Positions 16,284 to 55,785 of a stretch of 64,000 nt of DNA are shown piece by piece. The DNA is taken from the sequence record PQ657784; one strand, written 5' to 3'. Under the pieces are notes generated by a model. That model was not told the DNA's origin. It was given only the letters and a program-made list of their open reading frames with translations, and made no database searches. The stretch comes from Escherichia phage EPIMRB01. The position numbers and the translations under genes are program-made. How positions within the stretch are numbered: the stretch's first letter is position 1; each line of letters opens with the position of its first letter.

Positions 16284-16314
16284 TTTGTGTTCCTCATGTT
16301 ATGTTAGTAAGATT

Positions 16315-16344
16315 ATTATAACACAACACGAGGGACTTGTAAAC
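16315..16344 (-). promoter_or_regulatory. T4 early-type promoter
   Basis: Minus strand GTTTACA, 17-nt spacer, TATAAT. Confidence 0.6.
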
Positions 16345-18401: not shown

Positions 18402-18404
18402 GAT

Positions 18405-28178: not shown

Positions 28179-28411
28179 AGTACGCCATACACCCTTTGTG
28201 CTTCAACTAATCCATCAAAATCCAATTTGAGATGTGTTATTTGGTCACCATCACCTGGATTCACAATTACTAATACTGAACGAGGAGTTTCGGTAATAAC
28301 GCGAACCGATGTTTCTGGAAATCGTTCAGAAACCTTATTTACCAATTCCTGAGCAAATAGTTTAACTTTTTCTTGGAATTCTTTGACAGTAATTGGTTTT
28401 TCACTTAGCAT
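28175..28411 (-). CDS. Hypothetical protein
   Basis: 78-aa ORF. Confidence 0.5.
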   Translation of the reverse strand: MLSEKPITVKEFQEKVKLFAQELVNKVSERFPETSVRVITETPRSVLVIVNPGDGDQITHLKLDFDGLVEAQRVYGVL

Positions 28412-28935
28412 GTTGATCCCAGCTCCTTACTTTCAACGTTTTTGACTAATTTAACAGAAACTAATTCAGCATCTTGTGTAATCATTACCGGGCCTTCTTC
28501 ATACTCTTCAAGATATTCTAGAGCTTTCTTTTTAGCTTCTTCCTTCGTGTCAGTTTGAGCATAGATATAAAACATGCAACCACCAGTAATACCTACTACT
28601 TTCCACTTAATTTCTTTATCAGTTTTAATTTCAAATTTACTGACAGAATCATCTTTTTGAACTTCTTCGAAAAAAGAATATTCTAACATATAAGCAATTG
28701 AAAATAGCGGGCTAACTTTATAGGATTCGCCCATTACATCAACAGCTTTATACCAGCGGTCATCAATTTCGCGTTTAATGCTAATAACATTTTTCGCAGG
28801 ATCTATTTTTACTTTAAATGAATTTTCCCCAATAAACTGGGCAATTCGTTTATTAGCCCCGCAAGTTTCATTAAAAATATCTTTATATCCAGCTTTAAAG
28901 CGATAAACCTTATCTTCTTCAAACCATTCGCTCAT
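28405..28935 (-). CDS. Hypothetical protein
   Basis: 176-aa ORF. Confidence 0.55.
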   Translation of the reverse strand: MSEWFEEDKVYRFKAGYKDIFNETCGANKRIAQFIGENSFKVKIDPAKNVISIKREIDDRWYKAVDVMGESYKVSPLFSIAYMLEYSFFEEVQKDDSVSKFEIKTDKEIKWKVVGITGGCMFYIYAQTDTKEEAKKKALEYLEEYEEGPVMITQDAELVSVKLVKNVESKELGSTC

Positions 28936-28997
28936 TTCAATTTCCTCATTTGTTTCGGTAGAGCTATAATATCACAACTCTACCACAAAGTAAACTA

Positions 28998-29273
28998 TTA
29001 AATTGCTTTGAATTCTGATGTCTGCGATTCAAAACGAATATCACCTTTGATGACTAACTCAGCGTCAAGACCGAATACGACAATGATATGCGCGGAACCT
29101 GGATACAGCGTAATGGCAATAGAATCCACCTGGTCTGGAAGCAAAGTGTTCAATACATGAGTCACTTGAGCATGAATTCTAAGCTCGGCTGCGTTATCAA
29201 GCTTTTCAAACATATTATTAGCAATAATTTGGCTAAACACTACTTCTACGATTTTAGAATAAGTCGGAAACAT
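28998..29273 (-). CDS. Hypothetical protein
   Basis: 91-aa ORF. Confidence 0.5.
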   Translation of the reverse strand: MFPTYSKIVEVVFSQIIANNMFEKLDNAAELRIHAQVTHVLNTLLPDQVDSIAITLYPGSAHIIVVFGLDAELVIKGDIRFESQTSEFKAI

Positions 29274-29275
29274 AT

Positions 29276-29468
29276 TTACCTCACATAATTTTCTTCAAGC
29301 CAATCAATAACATCTAACGCATTATCAAAAGTTGAACCATCTACTTTGTCTTCTGTTTCATAATCAAGAACATCTAAGCCTACTCTTCCATTAACAATAG
29401 GCCATAAACAAAATAAATATTTCTTTTCTTTTTCAATTTTATCACAAAGTTGATAAATCTTTTCTATG

Positions 29469-29476
<8 letters not shown>
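29276..29476 (-). CDS. Hypothetical protein
   Basis: 66-aa ORF. Confidence 0.45.
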
Positions 29477-30891
<1,415 letters not shown>

Positions 30892-30894
30892 TTA

Positions 30895-31125
30895 TTATTT
30901 CTCAACCAACGATTGAATATAATCATGCAGGTCTTTAGATGCTTTACCCCACTTATTTTGGTATTCATTTTTAAGATTAGCACGTGATTGAGCTAATAAA
31001 ACATCATTAGTTGGAGGTAAAGATTCTAATCGTTGAATCTGGCGTCCGTAAATCATTGCAGCCATCTCGGATTCATAAATCAATCCTTTGAGATGTTCAA
31101 ATTGATGCCATGAAATCATTTGCAT
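30895..31125 (-). CDS. Hypothetical protein
   Basis: 76-aa ORF. Confidence 0.45.
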   Translation of the reverse strand: MQMISWHQFEHLKGLIYESEMAAMIYGRQIQRLESLPPTNDVLLAQSRANLKNEYQNKWGKASKDLHDYIQSLVEK

Positions 31126-31415
31126 TTATCCTCTTTTAACTCTTGGCGATAATAACATATCATAGTTTTCTGATCATGTACATATCGTTTTACATCATTA
31201 AGCCAAATGCGAAATTCCTGGGAATCTTCAAATGGCATACCGATCCAAGCTTTACCATCAATAACTTTAACTTGCCAAGATAGTTTAGCTTCATCATATG
31301 ACTTTATCTGCACAGGCCAATTAGGATGAACTGTTTCTTTCTTTACTTCTAGAGGCTTTGTCGAACAACCAACTAGAAGACCAATAGATAATATTACTGC
31401 TGATAGTTTAATCAT
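31116..31415 (-). CDS. Outer-membrane spanin (Rz1-like lipoprotein)
   Basis: 99 aa; signal peptide with lipobox LLVGC; 4-nt overlap with the upstream i-spanin ORF. Confidence 0.7.
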   Translation of the reverse strand: MIKLSAVILSIGLLVGCSTKPLEVKKETVHPNWPVQIKSYDEAKLSWQVKVIDGKAWIGMPFEDSQEFRIWLNDVKRYVHDQKTMICYYRQELKEDKCK

Positions 31416-31765
31416 TTAGAAAGGTCCTGGATGTCTTCTGCGAACTTGTTGAAGGAGTTGTTGATTTGTTTTTCAACCAATCCTGGCTTATGAGCCACCA
31501 CATCCGCCTTCTTTGCGTCTTTGCGCAGTTTTTCATTTTCACGCTCAATAGCAGCAATTGCCTCACGATTTTTATTATTCATCGCATCAATATAATTATA
31601 CTGAATTCGCAAATTATCTAATGCTAAAGCGTTTTCATTGGCTGTTTTTGTAATTTCAGTAACCGATGTTTCTAATCTTTCTACCTTATTTTTTAAAATA
31701 ATAGATGTTCCGCCAAATGCTATTACAAGTAATAACAATCCAGCTGTAAAATTACTTACATGCAT
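31412..31765 (-). CDS. Inner-membrane spanin (Rz-like)
   Basis: 117 aa; N-terminal transmembrane segment FTAGLLLLVIAFGGTSIIL then coiled-coil-rich periplasmic region. Confidence 0.7.
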   Translation of the reverse strand: MHVSNFTAGLLLLVIAFGGTSIILKNKVERLETSVTEITKTANENALALDNLRIQYNYIDAMNNKNREAIAAIERENEKLRKDAKKADVVAHKPGLVEKQINNSFNKFAEDIQDLSK

Positions 31766-32262
31766 AAAGTTTTAATAACCTCTACAATATCGTCTTGAGA
31801 AAGACCGTTAATTAAAATATGATGTTCAGCTGGAGATTTAGAAATTTTAAAGCATGCCTTAACATCTTCTGCCATATCCGATGCACTACGATTTGGATTA
31901 CTAATTCCAAGACGATGTTTTCCCGTCAAAGGATTAACGATGATATAGCATTTACAGCTATTAATGTGAACATTAGGTTGAGTCTGATTAATGAACACAT
32001 CACAATCATATTTCGCAAGCTGATTTTCTAAAAAGACTTTCATCTCCTCAACCGCATCAGGAAGCATATCACGGGCTTGCTCAAGACGACGATTTCGATA
32101 TTCTTTAATGGTCGTTTTCCGCTTGACTTGCTTAGCTAAATCTTTCTTAAGATCGGTGATATATCCAACTCGACGATTTCCTTTAAATACAGAAATCCCA
32201 TCTGTAGTATCACCGTATGCTTCAACGACCATCTCAGTAGTAATAAGCTGCAAATCCATCAT
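31756..32262 (-). CDS. alc: Alc, host transcription shut-off on cytosine DNA (putative)
   Basis: 168-codon ORF (167 aa from second ATG) at the T4 alc position upstream of the spanins; downstream of an early promoter. Confidence 0.65.
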   Translation of the reverse strand: MMDLQLITTEMVVEAYGDTTDGISVFKGNRRVGYITDLKKDLAKQVKRKTTIKEYRNRRLEQARDMLPDAVEEMKVFLENQLAKYDCDVFINQTQPNVHINSCKCYIIVNPLTGKHRLGISNPNRSASDMAEDVKACFKISKSPAEHHILINGLSQDDIVEVIKTLCM

Positions 32263-37990: not shown

Positions 37991-38850
37991 TTACACCGCC
38001 ATCTTTCCTTTAATTGGCGGGTGAGATACATAGTTTTTAAGAACAAAATCATGTGGCTTTGCGAATTGACTCAACCAAAATACCTGCGATTCTGTGTTCC
38101 ATTCATCAAATTCATCTGGAAATTTTAATTGTAATTCGCATAAATCCATAGGTTCACGACGCAAAATTTCTTTACATTGTTCTACGTGATTCATATAGAT
38201 ATGAGTATTACCACCAGAAAATATCAAATCTCCTGGAATAAGATTACACATCTTAGCTACAATATGAACTAACGTAGCATATGATGCAATATTAAATGGA
38301 AGACCGAGGAAAACATCTACCGAACGTTGATACCACTGCAAATCCAAATAGCCATTACGCACATTAAACTGATAGAACATATGACAAGGTGGTAATGCCA
38401 TATATTTAAGTTCAGCTGGATTCCATGCAGAAACAATTTGACGCCTATCATTTGGTAGTTTTTTAATACGATCAACAACTTCTATAATTTGGTCTACACC
38501 ACCAAAATCGCGCCATTGTTTTCCATAAATTGGACCAAGTTCACCACTATGGTATCCTAAATCTTTTGCTTGATTTTCGTAATTTTCATCCCAGACTGTT
38601 TTGCCTTGAATTAATGAATCATGTTGAATTAATCGCAAATCATTGACATTTGTGCTTCCCGATAAAAACCATATTAGCTCAGCAATGCAAGCTTTCCAGG
38701 CGAGCTTCTTAGTCGTTACTGCAGGAAAACCTTTAGTTAAATCCCAGCGTAATTTAGTACCGAACAAAGCAATTGTTCCTGTGCCTGTTCGGTCATCGGT
38801 TTCATAGCCATTTTCCAGGATATCTTTAATTAAAAATTGGTATTGTTTCA

Positions 38851-38851
<1 letters not shown>
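37991..38851 (-). CDS. td: Thymidylate synthase, uninterrupted
   Basis: 286 aa from ATG (MKQYQFLIKD...); ORF-track start is a TTG extension; DRTGTGT and catalytic PCH motifs; single continuous ORF. Confidence 0.93.
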
Positions 38852-39641
<790 letters not shown>

Positions 39642-39884
39642 TCAAAACCCCCTTTCAATAAACCATTCAGTGGCTTTATTAGCATCAAAGAATAATTCTT
39701 CATATGTCTTTTCTTTGTTTTCAAAAACTGTCACACAAACACGTTGACATTCTCCACAGTATTCTTCTGACATACTCAAAGCGTCAGAAAACATTTCATT
39801 AAATTCATTTAAATCAGGATTATGCAATGCGTTAAAAATTGCATAATCGAATTCATCATTCATAAATTCAAATACAAAAATCAT
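39642..39884 (-). CDS. Hypothetical protein
   Basis: 80-aa ORF; Cys-containing (CGECQRVC). Confidence 0.5.
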   Translation of the reverse strand: MIFVFEFMNDEFDYAIFNALHNPDLNEFNEMFSDALSMSEEYCGECQRVCVTVFENKEKTYEELFFDANKATEWFIERGF

Positions 39885-39892
39885 ATTATCTC

Positions 39893-40228
39893 CTAATATA
39901 AAGGATCGGGAACATATCCACTAGCTTTAATCATTTTAATTAACGTTAACATTCCTTTATTAACTGCTCGTGAGATTTCATCAAAAACTTCATCACTAAA
40001 AAGTTCTAACACGCCCTTCTGAACTTTTAATTTACAGCCAACAATTTCGTCATCGCCTATAGTAAATTCGTTTCCGCCAATTCCACCGAAAAACTTAATT
40101 GCACCAGTCAACTGTCTTCCACGAGAATATGGGTCGTGTGATAAAGTAATATGAGTCACCCCAGGTACAGTTTTAAATTGGCAACGGATGTTTACTTGGG
40201 CAATTCCAGTTACGTGAATGTCAGACAT
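39893..40228 (-). CDS. Hypothetical protein
   Basis: 111-aa ORF. Confidence 0.5.
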   Translation of the reverse strand: MSDIHVTGIAQVNIRCQFKTVPGVTHITLSHDPYSRGRQLTGAIKFFGGIGGNEFTIGDDEIVGCKLKVQKGVLELFSDEVFDEISRAVNKGMLTLIKMIKASGYVPDPLY

Positions 40229-40238
40229 AATATTTTCC

Positions 40239-40538
40239 TCAAACAGACTTTTTCACAATTTTCCAATCAGCTTTAAACTGATCGACGTCAGAATGGTAAA
40301 TCCAGAATCCTGCGCTTTCTCCATCCTCATAAAGAGGGCATCCATCGCATTCATCTTCCCATCCCATATCACGCAAAAGACGTTCAGCTTTTTCAACAAG
40401 TTCAGAATCTTTACCGATGATATTAAAATACCATTTACCTCTAACTTCTGAATCTTTAATGCTCTGACGTTGTAATCTCATTTTATTCTCCTTAGTTAAT
40501 AAGGCTATAGTATCACTACTATAGCCTGTTGTAAACAA
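40239..40538 (-). CDS. Hypothetical protein
   Basis: 99-aa ORF. Confidence 0.5.
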   Translation of the reverse strand: MFTTGYSSDTIALLTKENKMRLQRQSIKDSEVRGKWYFNIIGKDSELVEKAERLLRDMGWEDECDGCPLYEDGESAGFWIYHSDVDQFKADWKIVKKSV

Positions 40539-40841
40539 TTATTTTTGAATTTTATCGAGCCACTTACCAAGCTTAATCATTTCTTTAGTAGCCTTTTCCA
40601 TACTTCTGAACTTAACCAATAGAGGATAGGTATCGACACCCATAACTAAACTGGTTACAAGACTGTGTTCACCCACAAGCCATAACGAATACGTTTGAAT
40701 ATCGAGTCCGTAATTTCTGTCTTTATGGACCCGTACACCCATCACTTCAAATTTCTCACTAGCTTTTTCTACCGCATCCAGGAAATCATCTTTAGTCATA
40801 TTAGGCCTTAAAAGTTTTTCGCAAAAGTTCAATGATTTCAT
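40539..40841 (-). CDS. Hypothetical protein
   Basis: 100-aa ORF. Confidence 0.5.
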   Translation of the reverse strand: MKSLNFCEKLLRPNMTKDDFLDAVEKASEKFEVMGVRVHKDRNYGLDIQTYSLWLVGEHSLVTSLVMGVDTYPLLVKFRSMEKATKEMIKLGKWLDKIQK

Positions 40842-41166
40842 CTACATTGTTTTCGTCAACAATGCAGTGAATTTTCGTTACGCCAGAAACCTTGTCTTTA
40901 ACTTCATCTTCTTCAGAAGTTGGTTCTTTATACTCACGAAAACAATGAAATTCATCTTCGCAGACGTTAAAGTAAAAATGCTTTCCATTTGCGCATTCAA
41001 TGTGTTTTATTACTTTAAATCCGTCAGCAAAGAAAGATTCTTTAACTTCAAACCATCCGCCATTTTCTTGAATAATTTTAACTATTGATGAATTAGAACG
41101 TGGGCGATAACTAATAAATGTATCAATAAGTCTTGGAACAAGCTCATACTTTTTGCCATTATACAT
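40801..41166 (-). CDS. Hypothetical protein
   Basis: 121-aa ORF with SD GAGGAAAA. Confidence 0.5.
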   Translation of the reverse strand: MYNGKKYELVPRLIDTFISYRPRSNSSIVKIIQENGGWFEVKESFFADGFKVIKHIECANGKHFYFNVCEDEFHCFREYKEPTSEEDEVKDKVSGVTKIHCIVDENNVDEIIELLRKTFKA

Positions 41167-41210
41167 TACGTTTTCCTCATTTTAATAGGGGCTATAAAGC
41201 CCCTTGATAA

Positions 41211-41459
41211 TTATTGTTCAATCAGTCCCATGTAAAATTCTGCGTCTTCAGAATCCATACCATCACAATATTCATTAGCCATAAAACGAGTGAGGTCTTC
41301 AAGAGGACCTTCAATAACGATTTGAATACTCCAAAACTTAGAATCTTGTACGCTTGTGATACTAAGTTCAGGATAACGATTACGAATAACTTCTTCAATA
41401 TATTCAAAATCAACGATGTCAATATCAACTTTAGCCATATTATTTTCCTCTTTAATCAT
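41211..41459 (-). CDS. Hypothetical acidic protein
   Basis: 82-aa ORF downstream of an early promoter. Confidence 0.5.
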
Positions 41460-41482
41460 CAGCAGTATTGCCGATAGTTGTA

Positions 41483-41512
41483 TAGTACCACAGTCCTTGT
41501 GGTATGTAAACC
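41483..41512 (-). promoter_or_regulatory. Early-type promoter
   Basis: GTTTACA, 17-nt spacer, TACTAT with upstream TG. Confidence 0.6.
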
Positions 41513-41530
41513 GTTTTGTGAAAAAATTTT

Positions 41531-41561
41531 TGAAATAAAAAAGGGGACCTCTAGGGTCCCC
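41531..41561 (-). terminator. Rho-independent terminator after gene 32
   Basis: GGGGACC-CTAGA-GGTCCCC followed by T6 run on minus strand. Confidence 0.7.
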
Positions 41562-41583
41562 AATTAATTAGTAATATAATCTA

Positions 41584-42492
41584 TTAAAGGTCATTCAAAA
41601 GGTCATCCAGGTCCGTGTCATCAGCACTAGATGAACTGCCAGAGCTTGAGCTCATAAAATCATCTTCAGTTTTTGTATTGAAGTCATCAACATTGAATGC
41701 ATCCAAATCATCAGCAACTTTATCAGCTTTCTTAGCGGCAGTCGCTGCGGCACCACCCATAGCAGCAGTTCCCATAACTTGACTGAACTTAGTGCTCAGT
41801 TCTTCAAACGATTTGAATTTATCTTTAGAAGTCATTTCAGAAAGGTCAACCATTTGTTCAAACAGTTCTTTCTGGAAAGATTCATCATCAATGTTTGGAA
41901 TCGCAGATTGATTCAGGAATTTAGATTCGTCGTAGTTACTAAAACCAGAAACTTGTTTAACTTTCAGTACAAAGTTAGCACCTTCCCACGGACAAGTTAC
42001 ATCAACCGGAGTTTCACCCATTTCAACATCAACTGCAATCATTGCATTGATTTTATCCCAGATTTTTTTACCGAAACGGTATTTAAATACTTTACCTTCA
42101 TTTTCTGGAGCAGCTGGGTCTTTTACTACAAGAATGTTAGCCCAGTAAGAAGTTTTACGTTTAACAAGACCATATTCTTTATTGTCAGTGTTGTACAAAT
42201 CATTTTTACTGATGTACTGACATACTGGACAGGAATCGTAATCACCGTGGGTAGATGAACAGTTTTCAATATACCATTTACCATTTTTCTTGAAACCGTG
42301 ATTTACAAGAATTGCGAATGGTGCTTGTTCATCATTTTTAGACGGAAGAAAACGAATTACTGCTTGACCGTTACCCGCATTATCGAGTTTCAGTTTCCAC
42401 TCGCCTTTATCTTCAGAAGAAAAACCACCTTTATTTCCAGCCAGTTTAGCCATTTGTGCAGCGAGTTCAGCAGTAGATTTACGTTTAAACAT
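41584..42492 (-). CDS. 32: Single-stranded DNA-binding protein gp32
   Basis: 302 aa; zinc-binding H/C cluster ([11 protein letters not shown]), acidic Ser/Asp-rich C-terminal tail. Confidence 0.95.
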
Positions 42493-44857: not shown

Positions 44858-47800
44858 ATGGCCGAGATTAAAAGAAAGTTCAGAGCAGAAGATGGTCTGG
44901 ACGCAGGTGGCGATAAAATAATCAACGTAGCTTTAGCTGATCGTGCCGTAGGAACTGACGGTGTTAACGTTGATTACCTAATTCAAGAAAACACAGTTCA
45001 ACAATATGATCCAACTCGTGGATATTTAAAAGATTTTGTAATCATTTATGATAACCGCTTTTGGGCTGCTATAAATGATATTCCAAAACCAGCAGGAGCT
45101 TTTAATAGTGTACGCTGGAGAGCATTACGTACTGATGCTAATTGGACAACTGTTTCATCAGGACCTTATCAATTAAAGTCAGGCGAATCAATTTCAGTTG
45201 ATACTGCAGCTGGTAATGACATTACATTTACTTTGCCATCTTCTCCAATTGATGGAGATACTATCGTTCTTCAAGATATTGGTGGAAAACCTGGTGTTAA
45301 CCAAGTTTTAATTGTAGCTCCAGTGCAAAGTATTGTAAACTTCAGAGGCGAACAAGTACGTTCAGTACTAATGACTCATCCAAAATCGCAGATAGTTTTA
45401 ATTTTTAGTAATCGTCTGTGGCAAATGTATGTTGCTGATTATAGCAGAGAAGCTGTAGTCGTAACACCGGCAAGTCTTTATCAGGCGCAATCTAACGATT
45501 TTATCGTGCGCAGATTTACTTCAGCCGCGGCGATTAATATTAAACTTCCGAGATTTGCTAATCATGGCGATATTATTAATTTCGTCGATTTAGACAAATT
45601 AAATCCACTTTATCATACAATTGTTACTACATACGATGAAACAACTTCAGTGCAAGAAGTTGGAACTCATTCCATTGAAGGCCGTACATCGATTGATGGT
45701 TTCTTGATGTATGATGATAATGAAAAATTGTGGAGATTGTTTGACGGGGATAGTAAAGCACGTTTACGTATTATAACAACTAATTCTAGTATTCGTCCAA
45801 ATGAAGAAGTTATGGTATTTGGAGCGAATAACGGAACAACCCAAACAATTGAACTTCAGCTTCCGACCGATATTTCCATTGGCGATACTGTTAAAATTTC
45901 CATGAATTACATGAGAAAAGGCCAAACAGTTAAAATCAAAGCTGCCGGTGAAGATAAAATTGCTTCTTCAGTTCAATTGCTGCAATTCCCAAAACGTTCA
46001 GAATATCCGCCTGAAGCTGAATGGGTGACTGTTCAAGAATTAGTTTTTAATGGTGAAACTAATTATGTTCCAGTTTTACAACTTGCTTATATAGAAGATT
46101 CTGACGGAAAATACTGGGTTGTACAGCAAAACGTGCCAACAGTTGAAAGAGTTGATTCTTTAAATGATTCTACTAGAGCAAGATTAGGCGTAATTGCTTT
46201 AGCTACACAAGCTCAAGCTAACGTCGATTTAGAAAATTCTCCACAAAAAGAATTAGCAATTACTCCAGAAACATTAGCTAACCGTACTGCTACAGAAACT
46301 CGTAGAGGTATCGCAAGAATAGCAACTACCGCCCAAGTGAATCAGGATACTACATTCTCTTTTGCTGATGATATTATCATCACTCCTAAAAAGTTGAATG
46401 AAAGAACTGCTACAGAAACTCGTAGAGGTGTTGCTGAAATTGCTACGCAACAAGAAACTAATACAGGTACTGATGATACTACAATCATCACTCCTAAAAA
46501 GCTTCAAGCTCGACAAGGTTCTGAGTCATTATCTGGTATTGTAACCTTTGTATCTACTGCAGGAGCTACTCCAGCTTCTAGTCGTGAATTAAATGGTACA
46601 AACGTTTATAATAAAAACACTAATAATTTAGTTGTTTCGCCTAAAGCTTTGGATCAGTATAAAGCTACTCCAACGCAACAAGGTGCAGTAATTCTAGCAG
46701 TCGAAAGTGAAGTAATTGCTGGACAAAGCCAAGAAGGATGGGCAAATGCGGTTGTAACGCCAGAAACGTTACATAAAAAGACATCAACTGATGGAAGAAT
46801 TGGTTTAATTGAAATTGCTACGCAAAGTGAAGTTAATACAGGAACTGATTATACACGTGCAGTCACTCCTAAAACTTTAAATGACCGTAGAGCAACTGAA
46901 AGTTTAAGTGGTATAGCTGAAATTGCTACACAAGTTGAATTCGACGCAGGCGTCGACGATACTCGTATCTCTACACCATTAAAAATTAAAACTAGATTTA
47001 ATAGTACTGATCGTACTTCTGTTGTTGCTCTATCTGGATTAGTTGAATCAGGAACTCTCTGGGACCATTATACCCTTAATATTCTTGAAGCAAATGAGAC
47101 ACAGCGTGGTACACTTCGTGTAGCTACACAGGTCGAAGCTGCTGCAGGAACATTAGATAATGTTTTAATAACTCCTAAAAAGCTTTTAGGTACTAAATCT
47201 ACTGAAGCGCAAGAAGGTGTTATTAAAGTTGCAACTCAGTCTGAAACTGTGACTGGAACGTCGGCAAATACTGCTGTATCTCCAAAAAATTTAAAATGGA
47301 TTGTGCAGAGTGAACCTACTTGGGCAGCTACTACTGCGATAAGGGGCTTTGTTAAAACTTCATCTGGTTCAATTACATTCGTTGGTAATGATACAGTAGG
47401 TTCTACCCAAGATTTAGAACTGTATGAGAAAAATAGTTATGCAGTATCACCATATGAATTAAATCGTGTATTAGCAAATTATCTGCCGTTAAAAGCAAAA
47501 GCTGTAGATAGTAATTTATTGGATGGTCTAGATTCATCTCAGTTCATTCGTAGGGATATTGCACAGACGGTTAATGGTTCACTAACCTTAACCCAACAAA
47601 CGAATCTGAGTGCCCCTCTTGTATCATCTAGTACTGCTACGTTCGGTGGTTCAGTTACAGCAAATAGTGTACTAACTATTTCTAATACTGGAACAGAAAC
47701 TCATCTGATTTTTGAGAAAGGACCTCAAACTGGAACTAACCAAGCACAGACGGTGACTATTAGAGTGTGGGGTAATCAATTTAGTGGGGAATCAAACACA

Positions 47801-48727
47801 ACACGTTCTACCGTATTTGAAGTTAGTGATGAAACATCTTATCACTTTTATTCTCAACGCGATAAAGATGGTAATATAGCATTTAGCATTAATGGTACTG
47901 TAATGCCAATAAATGTGAATGCTTTAGGAACATTGAATGCAAATGGTGTAGCAACATTTGGTAATTCAGTCACTGCAAGTGGTGAAATTATTTCTCGAAG
48001 CGCAAATGCTTTCCGTGCTATTAACGGAAATTATGGTTTTATTGTTCGCAATGACGGGTCAGTAACGAATTTTATGCTTACTGCATCGGGCGATCAGACT
48101 GGTGGATTTAATGGATTACGTCCATTAACTATTAATAATGCATCTGGTCAAGTAACGATTGGTGAAAGCTTAATCATTGCCAAAGGTGCTACTATAAATT
48201 CAGGCGGTTTGACTGTTAACTCGAGAATTCGTTCTCAGGGTACTAAAACATCTGATTTATATACCCGCGCACCAACATCTGATACTGTAGGATTCTGGTC
48301 AATCGATATTAACGATTCAGCCACTTATAACCAGTTCCCGGGTTATTTTAAAATGGTTGAAAAAACTAATGAAGTGACTGGACTTCCATACTTAGAACGT
48401 GGCGAAGAAGTTAAATCTCCTGGTACACTGACTCAGTTTGGTAACACACTTGATTCGCTTTACCAAGATTGGATTACTTATCCAATAACACCAGAAGCGC
48501 GTACCACTCGTTGGACGCGTACATGGCAGAAAACCAAAAACTCTTGGTCAAGCTTTGTTCAGGTATTTGATGGAGGTAACCCTCCTCAGCCATCTGATAT
48601 CGGTGCTTTACCATCTGATAATGCTATAATGGGGAATCTTACTATTCGTGATTTCTTACGAATTGGTAATGTTCGCATTATTCCTGACCCAGTGAATAAA
48701 ACGGTTAAATTTGAATGGGTTGAATAA
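44858..48727 (+). CDS. 34: Long tail fibre proximal subunit gp34
   Basis: 1289 aa as in T4 gp34; repetitive beta-rich sequence. Confidence 0.95.
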   Translation: MAEIKRKFRAEDGLDAGGDKIINVALADRAVGTDGVNVDYLIQENTVQQYDPTRGYLKDFVIIYDNRFWAAINDIPKPAGAFNSVRWRALRTDANWTTVSSGPYQLKSGESISVDTAAGNDITFTLPSSPIDGDTIVLQDIGGKPGVNQVLIVAPVQSIVNFRGEQVRSVLMTHPKSQIVLIFSNRLWQMYVADYSREAVVVTPASLYQAQSNDFIVRRFTSAAAINIKLPRFANHGDIINFVDLDKLNPLYHTIVTTYDETTSVQEVGTHSIEGRTSIDGFLMYDDNEKLWRLFDGDSKARLRIITTNSSIRPNEEVMVFGANNGTTQTIELQLPTDISIGDTVKISMNYMRKGQTVKIKAAGEDKIASSVQLLQFPKRSEYPPEAEWVTVQELVFNGETNYVPVLQLAYIEDSDGKYWVVQQNVPTVERVDSLNDSTRARLGVIALATQAQANVDLENSPQKELAITPETLANRTATETRRGIARIATTAQVNQDTTFSFADDIIITPKKLNERTATETRRGVAEIATQQETNTGTDDTTIITPKKLQARQGSESLSGIVTFVSTAGATPASSRELNGTNVYNKNTNNLVVSPKALDQYKATPTQQGAVILAVESEVIAGQSQEGWANAVVTPETLHKKTSTDGRIGLIEIATQSEVNTGTDYTRAVTPKTLNDRRATESLSGIAEIATQVEFDAGVDDTRISTPLKIKTRFNSTDRTSVVALSGLVESGTLWDHYTLNILEANETQRGTLRVATQVEAAAGTLDNVLITPKKLLGTKSTEAQEGVIKVATQSETVTGTSANTAVSPKNLKWIVQSEPTWAATTAIRGFVKTSSGSITFVGNDTVGSTQDLELYEKNSYAVSPYELNRVLANYLPLKAKAVDSNLLDGLDSSQFIRRDIAQTVNGSLTLTQQTNLSAPLVSSSTATFGGSVTANSVLTISNTGTETHLIFEKGPQTGTNQAQTVTIRVWGNQFSGESNTTRSTVFEVSDETSYHFYSQRDKDGNIAFSINGTVMPINVNALGTLNANGVATFGNSVTASGEIISRSANAFRAINGNYGFIVRNDGSVTNFMLTASGDQTGGFNGLRPLTINNASGQVTIGESLIIAKGATINSGGLTVNSRIRSQGTKTSDLYTRAPTSDTVGFWSIDINDSATYNQFPGYFKMVEKTNEVTGLPYLERGEEVKSPGTLTQFGNTLDSLYQDWITYPITPEARTTRWTRTWQKTKNSWSSFVQVFDGGNPPQPSDIGALPSDNAIMGNLTIRDFLRIGNVRIIPDPVNKTVKFEWVE

Positions 48728-48735
48728 GAGGTATT

Positions 48736-49851
48736 ATGGAAAAATTTATGGCAGAGTTTGGACAAGGATACGTCCAAACGCCATTTTTATCGGAAAGTAA
48801 TTCAGTAAGATACAAAATAAGTATAGCGGGTTCTTGCCCGCTTTCTACCGCAGGACCATATGTTAAATTTCAGGATAATCCTGTAGGAAGTCAAACATTT
48901 AGCGCAGGTCTTCATTTAAGAGTTTTTGATCCTTCTACAGGATCATTAGTTGATAGTAAGTCATATGCTTTTTCTACTTCAAATGATACTACATCAGCTG
49001 CTTTTGTTAGTTTCATGAATTCTTTGACGAATAATAGAATTGTTGCTATATTAACTAGTGGAAAGGTTAATTTTCCTCCTGAAGTAGTATCTTGGTTAAG
49101 AACCGCCGGAACGTCTGCTTTTCCATCTGACTCTATATTGTCAAGATTCGACGTATCATATGCTGCTTTTTATACTTCTTCTAAAAGAGCTATTGCATTA
49201 GAGCATGTTAAATTAAGTAATAGAAAAAGCACAGATGATTATCAAACTATTTTAGATGTTGTATTTGACAGTTTAGAAGACGTCGGAGCTACCGGGTTTC
49301 CAAGAAGAACATATGAAAGCGTTGAGCAATTTATGTCAGCGGTTGGTGGAACCAATAACGAAATTGCGCGTCTACCAACTTCAGCTGCTATAAGTAAACT
49401 TTCTGACTACAATTTAATTCCTGGCGATGTTCTTTATCTTAAAGCACAACTATATGCTGATGACGATTTACTTTCTCTTGGAACTACTAATATATCCATT
49501 AGATTTTATAATGAATCGGATGGATATATTTCTTCAACATACGCTGAGTTTACCGGTCAAGCTGGGTCATGGGAATTAAAGGAAGACTATGTAGTTGTTC
49601 CTGAAAATGCGGTAGGATTTACGATATATGCACAAAGAACTGCCCAAGCAGGTCAAGGCGGCATGAGAAATTTAAGCTTTTCTGAAGTATCAAGAAATGG
49701 CGGCATTTCAAAACCTGCTGAATTTGGCGTCAACGGTATTCGCGTTAATTATGTCTGTGAATCCGCTTCACCTCCAGATATAATGGTACTTCCTACACAA
49801 GCATCGTCTAAAACTGGTAAAGTGTTTGGACAAGAATTTAGAGAAGTATAA
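48736..49851 (+). CDS. 35: Long tail fibre hinge connector gp35
   Basis: 371 aa; SD AAGAGG; synteny 34-35-36. Confidence 0.9.
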   Translation: MEKFMAEFGQGYVQTPFLSESNSVRYKISIAGSCPLSTAGPYVKFQDNPVGSQTFSAGLHLRVFDPSTGSLVDSKSYAFSTSNDTTSAAFVSFMNSLTNNRIVAILTSGKVNFPPEVVSWLRTAGTSAFPSDSILSRFDVSYAAFYTSSKRAIALEHVKLSNRKSTDDYQTILDVVFDSLEDVGATGFPRRTYESVEQFMSAVGGTNNEIARLPTSAAISKLSDYNLIPGDVLYLKAQLYADDDLLSLGTTNISIRFYNESDGYISSTYAEFTGQAGSWELKEDYVVVPENAVGFTIYAQRTAQAGQGGMRNLSFSEVSRNGGISKPAEFGVNGIRVNYVCESASPPDIMVLPTQASSKTGKVFGQEFREV

Positions 49852-49913: not shown

Positions 49914-50697
49914 ATGGCTGATTTAAAAGTAGGTTCAACAACCGGAGGCTCTGTCATTTGGCATCAAGGAAATTTTCCATTGAATCCAGCCGGTGACGAT
50001 GTACTCTATAAATCATTTAAAATATATTCAGAATATAATAAACCGCAAGCTGCTGATAACGATTTCGTTTCTAAAGCTAATGGTGGTACTTATTTAAATA
50101 AAGTAATTTTTAATAAAGGAATGACTGTTCCTGGCGCAGGGTCAGGTGATAATGGTATTTTTGCTGGTCCTGGTGATAGTGCCACGTATGATACTACAAA
50201 TATGGATATTGTTTCGTGGTATGGTATTGGTTTTAAATCATCACAAGGAACAGCAGGTAGAACTGTAGTAATTAACACGCGAAATGGAGATATTAGCTCA
50301 AAGGGCGTAATTGAAGCATCACAAATCCGTGTAACTTCGTTATCACCAGTAAATAATTATGACCTTACGCGGAAAGATTATGTTGATGGAGCAATAAATA
50401 TTGTTACCGCAAACGCAAACTCTAGCAAAGGGCGTAATTGAAGCATCACAAATCCGTGTAACTTCGTTATCACCAGTAAATAATTATGACCTTACGCGGA
50501 AAGATTATGTTGATGGAGCAATAAATATTGTTACCGCAAACGCAAACTCTAGGGTATTACGCTCTGGAGACACTATGACAGGAAATTTAACTGCGCCAAA
50601 CCTTTTTTCACAGAATCCTGCATCTCAACCTTCACATGTTCCACGATTTGATCAAATTGTTATTAAGGATTCTGTTCAAGATTTCGGCTATTATTAA
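49914..50697 (+). pseudogene. 36: Long tail fibre protein gp36, reading frame broken by an internal 127-bp tandem duplication
   Basis: Frame 1 (49914-50441) ends ...TANANSSKGRN*; the C-terminal 48 codons (RVLRSGDTMTGNL...QDFGYY) continue in another frame to 50697; removing one repeat copy gives a single ORF of about 218 codons. Confidence 0.8.
50299..50552 (+). repeat. Perfect direct tandem duplication, 2 x 127 bp
   Basis: 50299-50425 and 50426-50552 are identical base for base (caaagggcgtaattgaag...caaactctag). Confidence 0.9.
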
Positions 50698-50705: not shown

Positions 50706-53700
50706 ATGGCTACTTTAAAACAAATACAATTTAAAAGAAGCAAAACTGCAGGAGCACGTCCTGCCGCTTCAGTATTAGCCGAAGGTGAATTGGCTATAAA
50801 CTTAAAAGACCGTGTACTTTTTACTAAAGATGACCAAGGAAATATTATTGATCTGGGTTTTGCTAAAGGCGGTAGTATTGACGGGAATGTTATTCATACA
50901 GGCAATTATAACCAAACTGGCGATTATACTTTAAATGGCACCTTCACTCAGACTGGTAATTTTAATTTAACTGGTATTGCTCGAGTAACTCGCGATATTA
51001 TTGCCGCTGGGCAGATTATGACTGAAGGCGGAGAACTTATTACAAAAAGTTCAGGTACAGTGCATGTTCGTTTTTTCGATAACAATAGTCGCGAACGCGG
51101 AATCATTTATGCCCCGGCTAATGATGGTTTAACTACACAAGTACTTAATATCAGGGTTCAAGACTACGCCGCTGGTAGCGAAAGCACTTATGCATTTTCA
51201 GGCAGTGGACTATTTACTTCACCTGAAGTATCAGCATGGAAATCTATTTCGTCTCCACAAATTCTAACCAACAAAGTCATTACTAATAATAAATCTACTG
51301 GTGATTATGACATCTATTCGATGGCAGACAATGTTCCATTGTCTGAAAGCACTACTGCTATTAATCATCTTCGTGTCATGCGTAATGCCGTTGGTTCTGG
51401 TATTTTCCATGAAGTTAAAGATAATGATGGAATAACTTGGTATGCAGGTGATGGACTTGACACCTATCTTTGGTCATTTACTTGGAGCGGCGGAATTAAA
51501 TCGAGTCACTCAATTTCTATTGGTTTAACACCTGGTAATAAAGATTATTCAATATTAGGACCATCTAGTATTGCTTTAGGAGATAATGATACTGGATTTA
51601 AATGGCATCAAGATGGATATTATTTTAGCGTTAATAATGGAACAAAAACGTTTTTATTTAGTCCTAGCGAAACAACTAGCCTAAGAAAATTTGTAGCTGG
51701 ATATTCTACTAACGGAACCGATTTAACTACTCCTCCAACTGAAAACTATGCTCTCGCTACTGTCGTGACATATCACGATAATAACGCGTTTGGAGATGGT
51801 CAGACTCTTTTAGGATATTATCAAGGCGGTAATTATCATCACTATTTCCGCGGTAAAGGTACTACAAACATTAATACTCATGGCGGTTTGTTAGTTACTC
51901 CAGGTAATATTGATGTTATTGGCGGTTCTGTTAATATAGATGGTAGAAATAATTCTTCTACACTAATGTTTAGAGGCAACACAACAGGATACAGCTCGGT
52001 TGATAATATGGATATTAAAGTTTGGGGTAATACGTTTGTTGATCCAAGCGGAGGTATCCGTAAAAACATTATGGAAATTTCTGATGCAACTAGCTGGATG
52101 AGCTATATTCAAAGACTTACTACTGGCGAAGTAGAAATGAACGTTAATGGTTCATTTGAATCATCTGGTGTTACTGCTGGAGATAGAGGAGTTCACACAA
52201 CAGGTGAAATTTCATCTGGGGCTGTGAATGCGCTTCGTATTTGGAACGCAGATTATGGAGCTATTTTTAGACGTTCAGAAGGCAGTCTTCATATTATTCC
52301 AACTGCTTACGGTGAAGGTAAACATGGTGATATCGGTCCACTTCGCCCGTTTAGTATGGCTTTAGATACCGGTAAAGTTACTATTCCAGATTTACAATCA
52401 AGTTACAATACGTTTGCTGCTAACGGTTATATTAAATTTGTTGGTCATGGAGCGGGTGCCGGCGGTTATGACATTCAATATGCTCAAGCGGCTCCTATTT
52501 TCCAGGAAATTGATGATGATGCTGTAAGCAAATATTATCCTATTGTTAAACAGAAGTTTTTAAATGGTAAAGCTGTTTGGTCTTTAGGTACTGAAATTAG
52601 TTCAGGTACATTCGTTATTCATCATCTGAAAGAAGATGGTTCACAAGGCCATACGTCTCGTTTTAATCAAGACGGTACTGTTAACTTCCCAGATAACGTT
52701 TCTGTCGGCGGCGGTGAAGCTACTATTGCTCGCAATGGTAATATCTGGTCTGATATCTGGAAAACGTTTACTTCAGCAGGCGACGTAACTAATATTCGCG
52801 ATGCAATAGCTACTCGTGTTGCTAAAGAAGGTGATACGATGACCGGTAGGTTGACTTTATCTGCTGGAAATGATGCCCTTGTTTTAACTGCAGGCACGGG
52901 CGCTTCATCGCACATCCGTAGTGATGTAGGTGGTACAAATAATTGGTTTATAGGCAAAGGCGGCGGCGACAATGGTCTAAGTTTTTACAGTTACATTACA
53001 CAAGGCGGTGTGAACATAACAAATAACGGCGAAATAGCGCTTTCTCCTCAAGGACAAGGAGCGTTTAATTTTAATAGAGACCGCCTTCATATAAACGGTA
53101 CACAATGGACCGCACACCAGGCTGGCGATTGGGGAAATCAATGGCGCCAGGAAGCTCCTGTATTTGTGGATTTTGGTAATGTCGGTAATGATAGTTATTA
53201 TCCTATTATTAAAGGAAAATCTGGTATTACTAATGAAGGGTATATATCTGGTGTAGATTTTGGTATGCGACGCATTCCTAATAACTGGGCACAAGGTATT
53301 ATTCGTGTAGGTAATCAGGAAAACGGTTCCGACCCACAAGCTATCTTCGAATTCCACCATAATGGAAACATGTACGTTCCTGACATGGTTAAAGCTGGAG
53401 TAAGAATATCAGCTGGTGGAGGTGACCCTGCATGGACAGACGCATGTGTTGTTATTGGTGATAATGACACCGGATTAGTTCATGGTGGTGACGGCCGAAT
53501 CAATATGGTTGCCAATGGTATACATATTGCTTCATGGTCGTCCGCTTACCATCTCCATGAAGGTCTTTGGGATACTACTGGTGCTTTGTGGACTGAGCAA
53601 GGAAGAGCTATTATTTCTTTTGGTCATTTAATCCAACAGAGTGATGCCTATTCTACGTTTGTCCGTGATGTTTATGTCCGCTCTGATATTCGTGTTAAAA

Positions 53701-54017
53701 AAGACCTCGTTAAATTTGAAAATGCTTCTGAAAAGCTTTCTAAAATTAACGGTTACACTTATATGCAGAAACGTGGAACTGACGAAGAAGGTAATCAGAA
53801 ATGGGAACCTAACGCCGGTTTAATTGCTCAAGAAGTTCAAGCTATTTTACCAGAATTAGTTGAAGGCGACCCGGATGGTGAAGCTTTACTTCGTTTGAAC
53901 TATAACGGTGTAATTGGTTTAAATACAGCTGCAATCAATGAGCATACTGCAGAAATTGCGGAACTTAAATCAGAAATTGAAGAACTTAAAGCATTAGTTA
54001 AATCATTGTTAAAATAA
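50706..54017 (+). CDS. 37: Long tail fibre distal subunit gp37 with C-terminal intramolecular-chaperone-like domain
   Basis: 1103 aa; last ~111 aa (SDIRVKKD...[14 protein letters not shown]...coiled coil) resemble the autoproteolytic chaperone domain of phage fibres/tailspikes. Confidence 0.9.
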
Positions 54018-54018
54018 T

Positions 54019-54036
54019 AAGAGGGGCTTCGGCCCC
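54019..54036 (+). terminator. Stem-loop between genes 37 and 38
   Basis: GGGGC-TTCG-GCCCC. Confidence 0.45.
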
Positions 54037-54048
54037 TTGGAGGTTTAT

Positions 54049-54825
54049 ATGGCAGTAACAGGACCGTGGGTAGGATCGTCTGCAGTAGTTAATACAGGAC
54101 AAAATTGGATGGGTGGTGCCGCGCAGAGATTGAGAATGGGAATTCCGTTTTGGATGAGTAATATGATAGGTCGATCTGTTGAAATAATTCACACGCTTGG
54201 AGCAGACCATAACTTCAATGGTCAATGGTTCCGAGATAGATGTTTTGAGGCAGGTAGTGCACCTATAGTGTTTAATATCACTGGAGATTTAGTATCATAT
54301 TCTAAAGATGTTCCTTTATTCTTCATGTATGGAGATACACCCAATGAATATGTTCAGTTGAATATACACGGCGTAACGATGTATGGTCGTGGCGGTAATG
54401 GCGGTAGCAATAGTCCTGGCTCAGCTGGAGGTCATTGTATTCAAAACGATATTGGTGGGAGACTAAGAATTAATAATGGTGGAGCTATTGCAGGCGGCGG
54501 TGGCGGCGGTGGCGGCGGATATTATTCTCCTTTTTCACAAATGAGATTGACCTTTGGCGGCGGCGGTGGGCGTCCGTTTGGTGCACCTGGCGGATCTATT
54601 GATATGCAATCAGGAGCGACTGGCGGTACTATTTCTGCACCTGGCTCAGGATCCGTGAATGGTATCTATAATGGTGGAAACGGTGGTGAAGTAGGTTCCG
54701 CGGGAGGTAGATGCAATATTCGCGGTCAAGGATCTGAATATAATGGCGGCGATGCTGGTTATGCCGTCATAGGGTCCGCTCCAACGTGGATAAATGTTGG
54801 AGCAATATATGGTCCAAGAGTATAA
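54049..54825 (+). CDS. 38: Tail fibre tip adhesin gp38 (T2-type, glycine-rich motifs)
   Basis: 258 aa from ATG with SD GGAGG (ORF-track start is a TTG extension); several poly-Gly motifs (GGGGGGGGG, GGGGG) separated by variable segments. Confidence 0.85.
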
Positions 54826-54855
54826 TTTGAATAAATATCCTTAAAAGGAGGGTCT

Positions 54856-55512
54856 ATGGCAGCACCTAGAATATCATTTTCGCCCTCTGATATTCTGTTG
54901 GGTGTTCTAGATCGCTTGTTCAAAGATAACGCTACCGGGAAGGTTCTTGCTTCCCGAGTAGCTGTCGTAATTCTTTTATTTATGATGGCGATTGTTTGGT
55001 ATAGGGGAGATAGTTTCTTTGAGTACTATAAGCAATCAAAGTATGAAACATACAGTGAAATTATTGAAAAGGAAAGAAATGCACGCTTTGAATCTGTCGC
55101 CCTGGAACAACTCCAGATAGTTCATATATCATCTGAGGCAGACTTTAGTGCGGTGTATTCTTTCCGCCCTAAAAACTTAAACTATTTTGTTGATATTATA
55201 GCATATGAAGGAAAATTACCTTCAACAATAAGCGAAAAATCACTTGGAGGATATCCTGTTGATAAAACTATGGATGAATATGCAGTTCATTTAAATGGAC
55301 GTCATTATTATTCCAACTCAAAATTTGCTTTTTTACCAACTAAAAAGCCTACTCCCGAAATAAATTACATGTACAGTTGTCCATATTTCAATTTGGATAA
55401 TATCTATGCTGGAACAATAACTATGTACTGGTATAGAAATGATCACATAAGTAATGACCGCCTTGAATCAATATGTGCTCAGGCGGCCAGAATATTAGGA
55501 AGGGCTAAATAA
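54856..55512 (+). CDS. t: Holin T
   Basis: 218 aa as in T4 T; single N-proximal transmembrane segment VAVVILLFMMAIVW, large periplasmic domain. Confidence 0.92.
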   Translation: MAAPRISFSPSDILLGVLDRLFKDNATGKVLASRVAVVILLFMMAIVWYRGDSFFEYYKQSKYETYSEIIEKERNARFESVALEQLQIVHISSEADFSAVYSFRPKNLNYFVDIIAYEGKLPSTISEKSLGGYPVDKTMDEYAVHLNGRHYYSNSKFAFLPTKKPTPEINYMYSCPYFNLDNIYAGTITMYWYRNDHISNDRLESICAQAARILGRAK

Positions 55513-55785
55513 TTATTTGTTTGTATACATCTCTAGATATCGATATACACCCTCAAAACCCTCGTTGAATTCGTCGATGAGGGTTTTCTTATCTTCTTGG
55601 GTTAATTCAGAAACAATTTTACGGAATGAATTCTGATTTAACTTTCTACCTTCATGCGTTACTCCAATCTCATTCAGAAATGCAATAAAATTAGCACGAT
55701 TCTCAACAATATCTTCTCTGGAAAATTTAATCAAAATAGACGCAACAGTAATAATTTCACGAACTGTATCAATGTTTTTATTCAT
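55513..55785 (-). CDS. asiA: Anti-sigma70 factor AsiA
   Basis: 90 aa; sequence MNKNIDTVREIITVASILIKFSREDIVENRANFIAFLNE matches recalled T4 AsiA. Confidence 0.9.
   Translation of the reverse strand: MNKNIDTVREIITVASILIKFSREDIVENRANFIAFLNEIGVTHEGRKLNQNSFRKIVSELTQEDKKTLIDEFNEGFEGVYRYLEMYTNK

Follow-up and report, generated by a model that had tools for sequence, protein, structure and literature searches.

What kind of receptor-recognition tip does the long tail fibre of Escherichia phage EPIMRB01 carry, to which receptor is it directed, and is the tip a foreign element in the genome? We addressed these questions with a stretch of 64,000 nucleotides from this phage (sequence record PQ657784; hereafter the window), in which the genes for the distal fibre, g37 and g38, follow one another on the + strand. 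The domains of the tip proteins, their conserved motifs, their identities to relatives and the genes around them could be read directly from the window and its alignments. To judge from its encoded proteins, the fibre very probably ends in a canonical T-even distal tip of the T2/T6/S16 type.

The locus and its flanks

The source phage is a Tequatrovirus, and apart from one duplication the window matches OY979771.1 (Escherichia phage AUBRB02) at 100% identity. The DNA identity of the window to T4 is ∼92–97% up to position ∼50870 and again from ∼54830, and the initial description of an otherwise T4-like backbone is thus borne out on both flanks; between these two positions, blastn found no match to T4. 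T4 has the same locus with g34–g36 and t flanking it, and the protein identity is 80–98%. The right-hand flank is formed by the holin gene t (54856–55512, +), the product of which matches Pfam Phage_holin_T (E = 7e-117) and is 98% identical to T4 t. Gene 36 in the window is interrupted by a perfect 127-bp tandem duplication in the region 50299–50552, and OY979771.1, with a single copy, has the gene without it; we consider this duplication a data-quality concern, since a true duplication would abolish a protein that the fibre needs.

Gene 37 (50706–54017, +) is an ORF for the distal subunit of the long tail fibre and encodes a precursor of 1103 amino acids (118.9 kDa); its DNA similarity to T4 is confined to approximately the first 55 codons. 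An internal domain resembling the C-terminal trimerisation domain of gp34 is found at aa 453–550 (52062–52355, +; Pfam Gp34_trimer, E = 7e-7), and aa 418–561 match the gp34 structures 4uxe/5nxf (E ∼5e-12). T6 and T2 gp37 also attain the cut-off of the Gp34_trimer profile, but T4 gp37 falls below it (25.5 bits versus 27). The last part of the protein, aa 911–1103, aligns to the gp37 tip of phage S16 (PDB 6f45_A, E = 3.7e-43) and comprises two elements. The first is the distal tip (aa 911–992; 53436–53681, +), which ends in DVYVR and onto which gp38 is predicted to dock after departure of the chaperone. The second is the intramolecular chaperone domain itself (aa 993–1103, 12.3 kDa; 53682–54014, +; Pfam PF13884). 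The initial annotation had located this domain in the last 111 or so residues, from about nucleotide 53682, and both values are exact: the codon for Ser993 starts at nucleotide 53682 and the domain is 111 residues long.

A gap of 31 nt separates the g37 stop codon from g38. Between the stop codon and the Shine-Dalgarno sequence of g38 (GGAGG; 54039–54043, +) there is a hairpin, GAGGGGC-UUCG-GCCCCUU (54021–54038, +), with a predicted folding energy of −14.1 kcal/mol, which is weak compared to that of shuffled sequences (z = −1.66). A G+C-rich hairpin is nevertheless found at all 21 of the g37–g38 junctions examined, T4 included, with changed stem sequences, and the argument for the hairpin is its conservation, not its energy. 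An adhesin gene lies directly downstream of a g37 with a cleavable-type chaperone end in 19 of 20 compared loci; a scan of IMG/VR for gp37–gp38 junctions yielded 15 loci, in one of which the upstream ORF is truncated.

Gp38 has the domains of a T-even adhesin

Gene 38 (54049–54825, +) encodes a predicted monomeric tail-fibre adhesin of 258 amino acids (26.1 kDa), counted from an ATG; a mechanical ORF list opens the gene four codons earlier, at a TTG. The protein falls into PHROG 2056 (‘tail fiber protein; host specificity’, E = 1.4e-109) and matches two Pfam profiles, Gp38_N (PF21721; aa 1–40, E = 1.4e-21) and GP38 (PF05268; aa 45–258, E = 3.2e-71, profile positions 1–218 of 218), with scores well outside what chance would give. 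Residues 1–255 align to S16 gp38 (PDB 6f45_D, E = 7e-53), and the protein also matches the receptor-binding domain of PP01 gp38 (PDB 9v85, E = 1.1e-78). This full-length alignment to solved homologues settles the predicted fold. The two profiles, together with the lack of any blastp hit to T4 gp38 at E < 1e-3, uphold the earlier assignment of gp38 to the T2/T6-type adhesins, as opposed to the T4 chaperone; neither T4 gp38 nor T4 gp37 has the Pfam domains found here.

Three parts of gp38 can be delimited. The attachment domain (aa 1–45; 54049–54183, +) contains three Trp prongs, W7, W20 and W35, which are invariant in an alignment of six adhesins; in S16 gp38, the three Trp are the docking prongs (PMC6851490). 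Residues 46–112 (54184–54384, +) form the N-terminal part of the central β-helix, based on the alignment to S16 gp38. The specificity region (aa 113–240; 54385–54768, +) is a predicted polyglycine-II sandwich in which Gly-rich motifs alternate with hypervariable segments. Gly makes up 24% of gp38 overall and 34% of aa 111–258, and includes a run of nine (aa 149–157) and one of five (aa 170–174). The poly-glycine motifs separating variable segments that had been reported from the window alone could all be mapped (aa 113–119, 127–128, 149–157, 170–174, 181–182, 192–193, 199–201, 209–213, 219–220 and 233–234); the motifs are conserved across the six adhesins and the intervening segments are variable.

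The predicted receptor is Tsx

Published work has established that the outer-membrane receptor is specified by the variable segments that separate the Gly motifs (PMC3157838, PMC12032242, bioRxiv 10.64898/2026.04.02.716166), as had been proposed for this gp38. We therefore compared the window gp38 with adhesins of known specificity. Over aa 46–258, it is 99% identical to that of FL23, 97% to that of WilhelmHis (Bas35) and 93% to that of T6. The corresponding values are 99%, 93% and 85% for aa 46–112, and 99% (FL23 and Bas35) and 96% (T6) for the specificity region, aa 113–240. A tblastn comparison of aa 129–258 gave 99.2% for FL23/FL44, 98.5% for WilhelmHis, 97.7% for CM8 and 95.4% for T6. All of these phages are Tequatrovirus, and dependence on Tsx has been demonstrated experimentally for FL23 and FL44 (PMC12032242), WilhelmHis/Bas35 (PMC8594841), CM8 (bioRxiv 10.64898/2026.04.02.716166) and T6. 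Because aa 46–258 are 93–99% identical to gp38 of Tsx-dependent phages, the predicted receptor is most likely Tsx, the nucleoside channel of E. coli.

A receptor other than Tsx, either another porin or LPS, on the same architecture retains a small probability. Single substitutions can switch the receptor of a gp38, as in RB68, in which Q206L changes the specificity from OmpF to OmpW, and the window gp38 has an unusual residue, Asp235, in its last Gly-rich motif, a position occupied by Ala in every T6-like relative compared. Moreover, phage fPS-65, the specificity domain of which is 97.7% identical to that of gp38, has had its receptor mapped on Yersinia to the heptose of the LPS inner core and not to a protein (PMC7917993). 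However, D235A is the only difference from the Tsx-dependent FL23 and FL44 in aa 113–258, and it lies in a Gly-rich motif rather than in a hypervariable loop; five independently characterised Tsx phages are at least 95% identical in this domain. There is a slim chance that the combination of a T6-like Tsx domain bearing Asp235 with an S16-like tip, chaperone and attachment domain gives a receptor range or host range that differs from that of T6 and FL23, for instance towards Shigella; Shigella phages ESh32 and ESh34 have an identical gp38 specificity domain. We retain Tsx as the predicted receptor.

The module is a mosaic at two levels

The sequence affinities of the tip differ between its parts. 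The gp38 attachment domain is 87% identical to that of FL23 and 62% to that of S16, but only 57% to those of T6 and Bas35. The gp37 chaperone domain is similarly 97% identical to that of FL23 and 57% to that of S16, with 28–34% identity to those of T6, Bas35 and T2, and T6 and Bas35 differ from the window throughout the gp37 tip plus chaperone (28–29% identity). FL23 shares with the window gp36 (100% identity) and gp37 (88% identity over the full length) as well as the chaperone. The N-terminal domain of gp38 is S16-like, as are the tip and chaperone of gp37, while aa 46–258 of gp38 are T6-like; gp38 is therefore itself a chimera, joined near residue 45, in keeping with the known modular design of these proteins. 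The module as read from these alignments is thus a mosaic at two levels, with respect to T4 (g37 past codon ∼55, and g38) and within gp38.

The attachment domain varies together with the end of gp37 (chaperone and tip): in a sample of 18 loci, which is small and consists of loci related to one another, chaperone similarity tracks that of the gp38 N-terminus (ρ = 0.47, Mantel P = 2e-4) but hardly that of the specificity domain (ρ = 0.16). It has been reported that T2 gp37 is incompatible with PP01 gp38 and that a swap of the N-terminal 113 aa rescued the combination (PMC12892980).

The module had been called T2-type, which is correct for the architecture and not for the sequence. T2 agrees with the window in gene order and in Pfam domains (S74 in gp37; GP38 and Gp38_N in gp38), but its gp38 is just 47% and its gp37 ∼34% identical to those of the window, T2 gp37 has 1341 aa with a chaperone of 99 aa, and the T2 receptor is FadL (PMC8594841). 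From the sequence comparisons, the module is better described as combining a gp37 tip and chaperone of the S16 kind with a specificity domain of the T6/FL23 type.

The initial annotation had also taken the locus to reflect mosaic acquisition of host-range determinants; the mosaicism stands, but the polarity implied by acquisition into a T4-like backbone is probably reversed, with T4 as the exception. An unusual genome in which a T4-type phage recently gained a foreign T2-type receptor module would explain why DNA similarity to T4 is lost so sharply between ∼50870 and ∼54830, inside a backbone with 92–97% identity, and the tail-fibre locus is a known hot-spot of recombination (PMC3157838). We consider such a gain unlikely. 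The adhesin-type tip is predominant in T-even phages, and it is T4 in which the C-terminal part of g37 together with g38 is a lambda-like replacement (PMC3157838; PMC6851490); because the adhesin form is the common one and T4 the lambda-derived exception, acquisition into a T4-like backbone has the wrong polarity. We found an adhesin-type gp38 in 884 records of a phage collection, a gp38 with 80% or more identity to that of T4 in 91, and a holin at least 95% identical in 491, counts that are numbers of records and not proportions among Tequatrovirus. In 101 phage records, a single aligned place covers at least 80% of a 2.6-kb stretch of this locus.

The chaperone domain retains the residues for autocleavage

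The gp37 chaperone domain was examined for the features expected of an autoproteolytic fibre chaperone. Its Peptidase_S74 core (PF13884; aa 993–1052; 53682–53861, +) covers profile positions 1–57 of 58 (E = 9.3e-13, 48.7 bits versus a cut-off of 22). The helix at its C-terminus (aa 1073–1103; 53922–54014, +), that is, the last 31 residues of gp37, shows three heptads with I, L or V at positions a and d, in agreement with the coiled-coil segment noted previously; both the SDIRVKKD motif and the 14-residue segment that had been singled out are present. The S74 domain is also found in T2, T6 and Bas35 gp37 and is absent from T4 gp37, and in more than 25 PHROG families of tail fibres the match to the chaperone domain lies at the very C-terminus.

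The predicted autocleavage site is Arg992/Ser993 (53679–53684, +), at the SDIRVK motif, which places Ser993 and Lys998 at i and i+5. In an alignment of six proteins, Ser, Asp and Arg996 are invariant, and the position of Lys998 is Lys in five, the exception being the old T6 record AF052605 with Asn. SDIRVK aligns with SDRRIK of S16, SDERLK of 8jov and the matching positions of MYRF 7dc3, and a 10-residue stretch around it stands opposite VSSDRRIKKD of S16 (PDB 6f45_A). A search of PDB sequences with the chaperone domain alone returned S16 and two weak, non-significant matches, MYRF 7dc3 (E = 0.018) and the tail fibre 8jov (E = 0.026), and it did not reach the endosialidase structure directly; the two weak matches lend support to the proposed Ser/Lys alignment. 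In 19 of 20 loci, the sequence upstream of gp38 contains an SDxRxK motif. The initial annotation had made its reading of this domain depend on a catalytic Ser and Lys appearing on alignment, and that reading survives because the pair is in place as Ser993/Lys998. The S74 match and the Ser/Lys pair together favour a chaperone of the autoproteolytic type, in which cleavage would be expected by homology.

The closest known case is S16 (gp37)3–gp38 (PDB 6F45; Dunne et al. 2018), with which the window has in common an S74 chaperone cut, or predicted to be cut, before SDxRxKK. S16 gp37 is cleaved at DLNVS^SDRRIKK, releasing a chaperone of 113 aa (PMC7917993), compared to 111 aa in the window, and the residue before the cut is Ser in S16 and Arg in the window; in the fPS phages the predicted cut is at DVYIR^SD (PMC7917993). 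In MYRF, S578/K583 are the counterpart of the endosialidase dyad and have the same i, i+5 spacing as in gp37 (PMC3742443). The S74 domains of endosialidase and MYRF share with gp37 this Ser/Lys pair, and the conserved Arg996 may correspond to the Arg that stabilises the oxyanion in the endosialidase structure; the endosialidase chaperone likewise forms the C-terminal part of a trimeric fibre and has a helical heptad end. The two differ in what removal achieves: in endosialidase it frees the mature enzyme, whereas in the window it is predicted to expose the docking site of a separate adhesin.

A degenerate S74 remnant that is not cleaved and stays on the fibre is very improbable. The Asn in AF052605 suggests that the Lys might vary, but Ser993, Arg996 and Lys998 are all retained in gp37, the S16 chaperone, the cleavage of which is documented, shares 57% identity with the domain, and docking of gp38 needs an exposed tip. 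We thus favour an active chaperone.

Proposed working of the fibre tip and its significance

For cleavage, for the presence of gp38 in the virion and for the receptor, we infer by homology. Gp37 would be made as the 1103-aa precursor, and its last 111 residues, the S74 intramolecular chaperone, would aid folding of the trimeric β-helical fibre. After trimer formation, the chaperone would cut itself off between Arg992 and Ser993 by means of the Ser993/Lys998 pair, leaving a mature chain of 992 aa (∼107 kDa) ending in DVYVR. The exposed tip would present three hydrophobic pockets, into which one gp38 molecule may dock through Trp7, Trp20 and Trp35 of its attachment domain. The remainder of gp38 would be a β-helix bearing the polyglycine-II sandwich, the distal hypervariable loops of which are predicted to touch an outer-membrane protein, probably Tsx. 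S16 gp38 has the same three-Trp attachment domain, β-helix and polyglycine-II sandwich as the window gp38, but its specificity region is only ∼48% identical and S16 targets Salmonella OmpC.

It is hardly credible that the tip works as in T4, in which gp37 lacks S74 and binds the receptor itself while gp38, an unrelated lambda Tfa-like chaperone, stays outside the virion (PMC3157838): the gene position is that of T4 g38, but gp38 has no detectable similarity to T4 gp38 and can be aligned from end to end with adhesins of known structure, and T4 gp37 has Collar and Phage_fiber domains instead of S74.

The canonical tip arrangement is thus real and was correctly identified, but it is already known and not unusual, and both its biology and the prediction of a receptor from gp38 sequence are established in the literature. 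The value of the finding is practical. In OY979771.1, g37 and g38 are both labelled ‘hypothetical protein’; g37 can now be annotated as the gene for the distal subunit of the long tail fibre, with its chaperone domain, and g38 as that for the gp38 adhesin, with Tsx as its predicted primary receptor. The prediction of Tsx may be useful in the design of phage cocktails and in anticipating resistance that arises by loss of tsx.

The long-tail-fibre locus

The T-even long-tail-fibre operon is found on the + strand of the window, where the ORF list gives g34 (44858-48727), g35 (48736-49851), g36 (49914-50697, split into two ORFs), g37 (50706-54017; 1103 aa), g38 (54049-54825; 258 aa counted from ATG) and the holin gene t (54856-55512); asiA is on the minus strand. 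Over positions 53000-55600, the sequence matches Escherichia phage AUBRB02 (OY979771.1) at 100% identity, and by blastn this record is identical to the window throughout, save one 127-bp insertion. Both g37 and g38 are labelled ‘hypothetical protein’ in OY979771.1 (6707-10826 of that record, 50706-54825 of the window), despite strong family matches. Separately, aa 58-126 of the fibre hinge protein gp35 (48736-49851) match Pfam ILEI (interleukin-like EMT inducer/FAM3 domain) with a score that exceeds the family cut-off (E=7.3e-9).

The 127-bp difference is a perfect tandem duplication within g36 (50299-50425 and 50426-50552), which results in a frameshift that splits the gene into ORFs 49914-50441 and 50401-50697. 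AUBRB02, in contrast, has a single copy of the unit and an intact gp36 of 218 aa. Each of the eight top-ranked phage records has a single 244-bp copy, and the duplication is absent from the top-matching records listed, of 329 in the phage collection. The length of the unit equals the largest default SPAdes k-mer (127), which suggests that the duplication is an artefact of assembly, circularisation or processing rather than biology; it could plausibly have come from an assembly overlap left untrimmed.

The window backbone is ∼92-97% identical to T4 DNA, and no DNA alignment to T4 was found from ∼50870 (g37 codon ∼55) to ∼54830 (just past the g38 stop). Protein identity to T4 is 94% for gp34, 97% for gp35, 80% for gp36 and 98% for t, but only 33% for gp37, limited to its N-terminal part. 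Other stretches of the window (∼16000-20000, ∼28000-32000 and ∼38000-42000) also align poorly or not at all with T4 DNA (coverage 0.3-0.8, identity as low as ∼83%); thus, the fibre tip is not its sole variable island.

The gp38 adhesin and the gp37 chaperone domain

The initial annotation described gp38 as a glycine-rich adhesin with variable segments, an architecture distinct from the T4 arrangement, and we confirmed this observation far beyond chance. Pfam assigns the protein to GP38 (E=3.2e-71), with Gp38_N also matched (E=1.4e-21), and its PHROG match is family 2056 (E=1.4e-109), annotated ‘tail fiber protein; host specificity’; residues 111-258 are 34% glycine, with G9 and G5 runs, and in alignment the glycine-rich motifs are conserved while the intervening segments vary. 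It aligns over its full length with gp38 of Salmonella phage S16 (6f45_D; E=7e-53) and also with the receptor-binding domain of PP01 gp38 (9v85, E=1.1e-78; PMC12892980). No similarity to T4 gp38 was found. W7, W20 and W35 are invariant in the alignment; in S16, these three Trp are the residues that insert into the tip of gp37 (PMC6851490).

The last ∼111 aa of gp37, from about nt 53682, had been proposed to carry SDIRVKKD as part of a chaperone-like domain. Indeed, the codon of Ser993, with which this motif begins, starts at 53682, and the C-terminal segment from Ser993 is exactly 111 aa. Pfam Peptidase_S74 matches aa 993-1052 (E=9.3e-13), and the solved S16 tip complex contains a gp37 fragment (6f45_A) to which aa 911-1103 can be aligned (E=3.7e-43), with ten residues of window gp37 opposite VSSDRRIKKD of S16. 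S16 gp37 is cleaved at DLNVS^SDRRIKK, releasing the last 113 residues, and cleavage in fPS phages is predicted at DVYIR^SDGRLKI; the five residues preceding the cut are the gp38 docking surface (PMC7917993). By alignment, the predicted cleavage site of window gp37 is DVYVR^SDIRVKK, which would yield a mature chain of 992 aa (106.6 kDa) and a freed domain of 12.3 kDa.

The catalytic dyad of the S74 family is Ser/Lys at i and i+5 (PMC3742443). In a six-protein alignment, the Ser, Asp and Arg996 of the cleavage motif are invariant and the Lys is present in all except an old partial T6 record, which also has an X; the Ser/Lys pair that the chaperone reading calls for is therefore in place in gp37. 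In this T6 record (AF052605), the motif is SDSRLNINK, in which Asn takes the place of the catalytic Lys, and the X is nearby; the motif of the close relative Bas35 is SDSRLKINK. The Asn is probably a sequencing error of the 1998 record rather than a sign of a Lys-less chaperone. S74 is also found in gp37 of T2, T6 and Bas35; T4 gp37, in contrast, lacks it and has Collar and Phage_fiber domains instead. The window S74 domain matches the extreme C-terminus of >25 different tail-fibre PHROGs, as expected for a C-terminal module that is exchanged widely.

The adhesin form is the norm

The initial annotation identified the module correctly and suggested that a T4-like backbone had acquired it mosaically, but acquisition most likely ran in the opposite direction. 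Trojet et al. state that the adhesin form is predominant among T4-type phages and that the C-terminal part of T4 g37, together with g38, was replaced by lambda-derived sequence (PMC3157838); Dunne and Leiman call T4 the ‘less common representative’ (PMC6851490). Counts of records in the phage collection are consistent with this: adhesin-type gp38 is found in 884 records and gp38 at least 80% identical to that of T4 in 91, while a holin at least 95% identical is found in 491. In 101 records, one aligned place spans at least 80% of the 2.6-kb stretch 53000-55600. The published polarity and these counts thus make the arrangement in the window the norm.

From sequence comparison, there is a second junction within the gp37-gp38 module. 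In its attachment domain (aa 1-45), gp38 is 62% identical to that of S16 but only 57% to those of T6 and Bas35, and the gp37 chaperone is 57% identical to that of S16, compared to 28-29% for T6 and Bas35. Across 20 g37-g38 junctions (the window, four phage-record loci and 15 IMG/VR loci), there is one cleavage-site/chaperone sequence type per gp38 N-terminal type. In the 18 usable loci, chaperone similarity rises with similarity between gp38 N-termini (rho 0.47, Mantel p=2e-4); there is scarcely any such correlation for the gp38 specificity domain (rho 0.16). This co-variation fits both the modular design of Trojet et al. (PMC3157838) and the observation that PP01 gp38 is functional on T2 gp37 only once its N-terminal 113 aa are swapped for those of T2 (PMC12892980).

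The g37 stop and the g38 Shine-Dalgarno are separated by a hairpin, rich in G+C and capped by a UUCG loop (GAGGGGC-UUCG-GCCCCUU; 54021-54043 region). Its folding energy alone is unremarkable (z=-1.66), but a hairpin is found at the same position, with differing stem sequences, in 21/21 g37-g38 junctions compared (T4 included). Similar C(UUCG)G hairpins are known between genes in T4 mRNAs.

Predicted receptor

The best prediction from gp38 sequence is that the receptor is Tsx, because phages with near-identical specificity domains depend on Tsx. Residues 46-258 are 99% identical to FL23, 97% to WilhelmHis (Bas35) and 93% to T6, compared to 47% for T2 and 45% for S16; by tblastn, the specificity domain (aa 129-258) is 99.2% identical in FL23 and FL44, 98.5% in WilhelmHis, 97.7% in CM8 and 95.4% in T6. 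Tsx dependence was established by experiment for FL23 and FL44 (PMC12032242), by experiment with complementation for WilhelmHis (PMC8594841), and by RB-TnSeq and gp38 swapping for CM8 (bioRxiv 10.64898/2026.04.02.716166). Three points temper this prediction. A single substitution, such as RB68 Q206L, can switch the gp38 receptor (bioRxiv 10.64898/2026.04.02.716166); residue 235, within the last glycine-rich motif (GGDAG), is Asp in the window (GAT, 54751-54753) but Ala in the T6-like gp38s compared; and fPS-65, with a specificity domain 97.7% identical to that of the window, depends on LPS heptose in Yersinia (PMC7917993). The domain is 100% identical in the AUBRB02 record and in four phages, vB_Eco_CP, ESh32, ESh34 and Shinka.

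Nothing in the biology of the fibre tip is new; all that the analysis adds for AUBRB02 is an improved annotation together with a predicted receptor.
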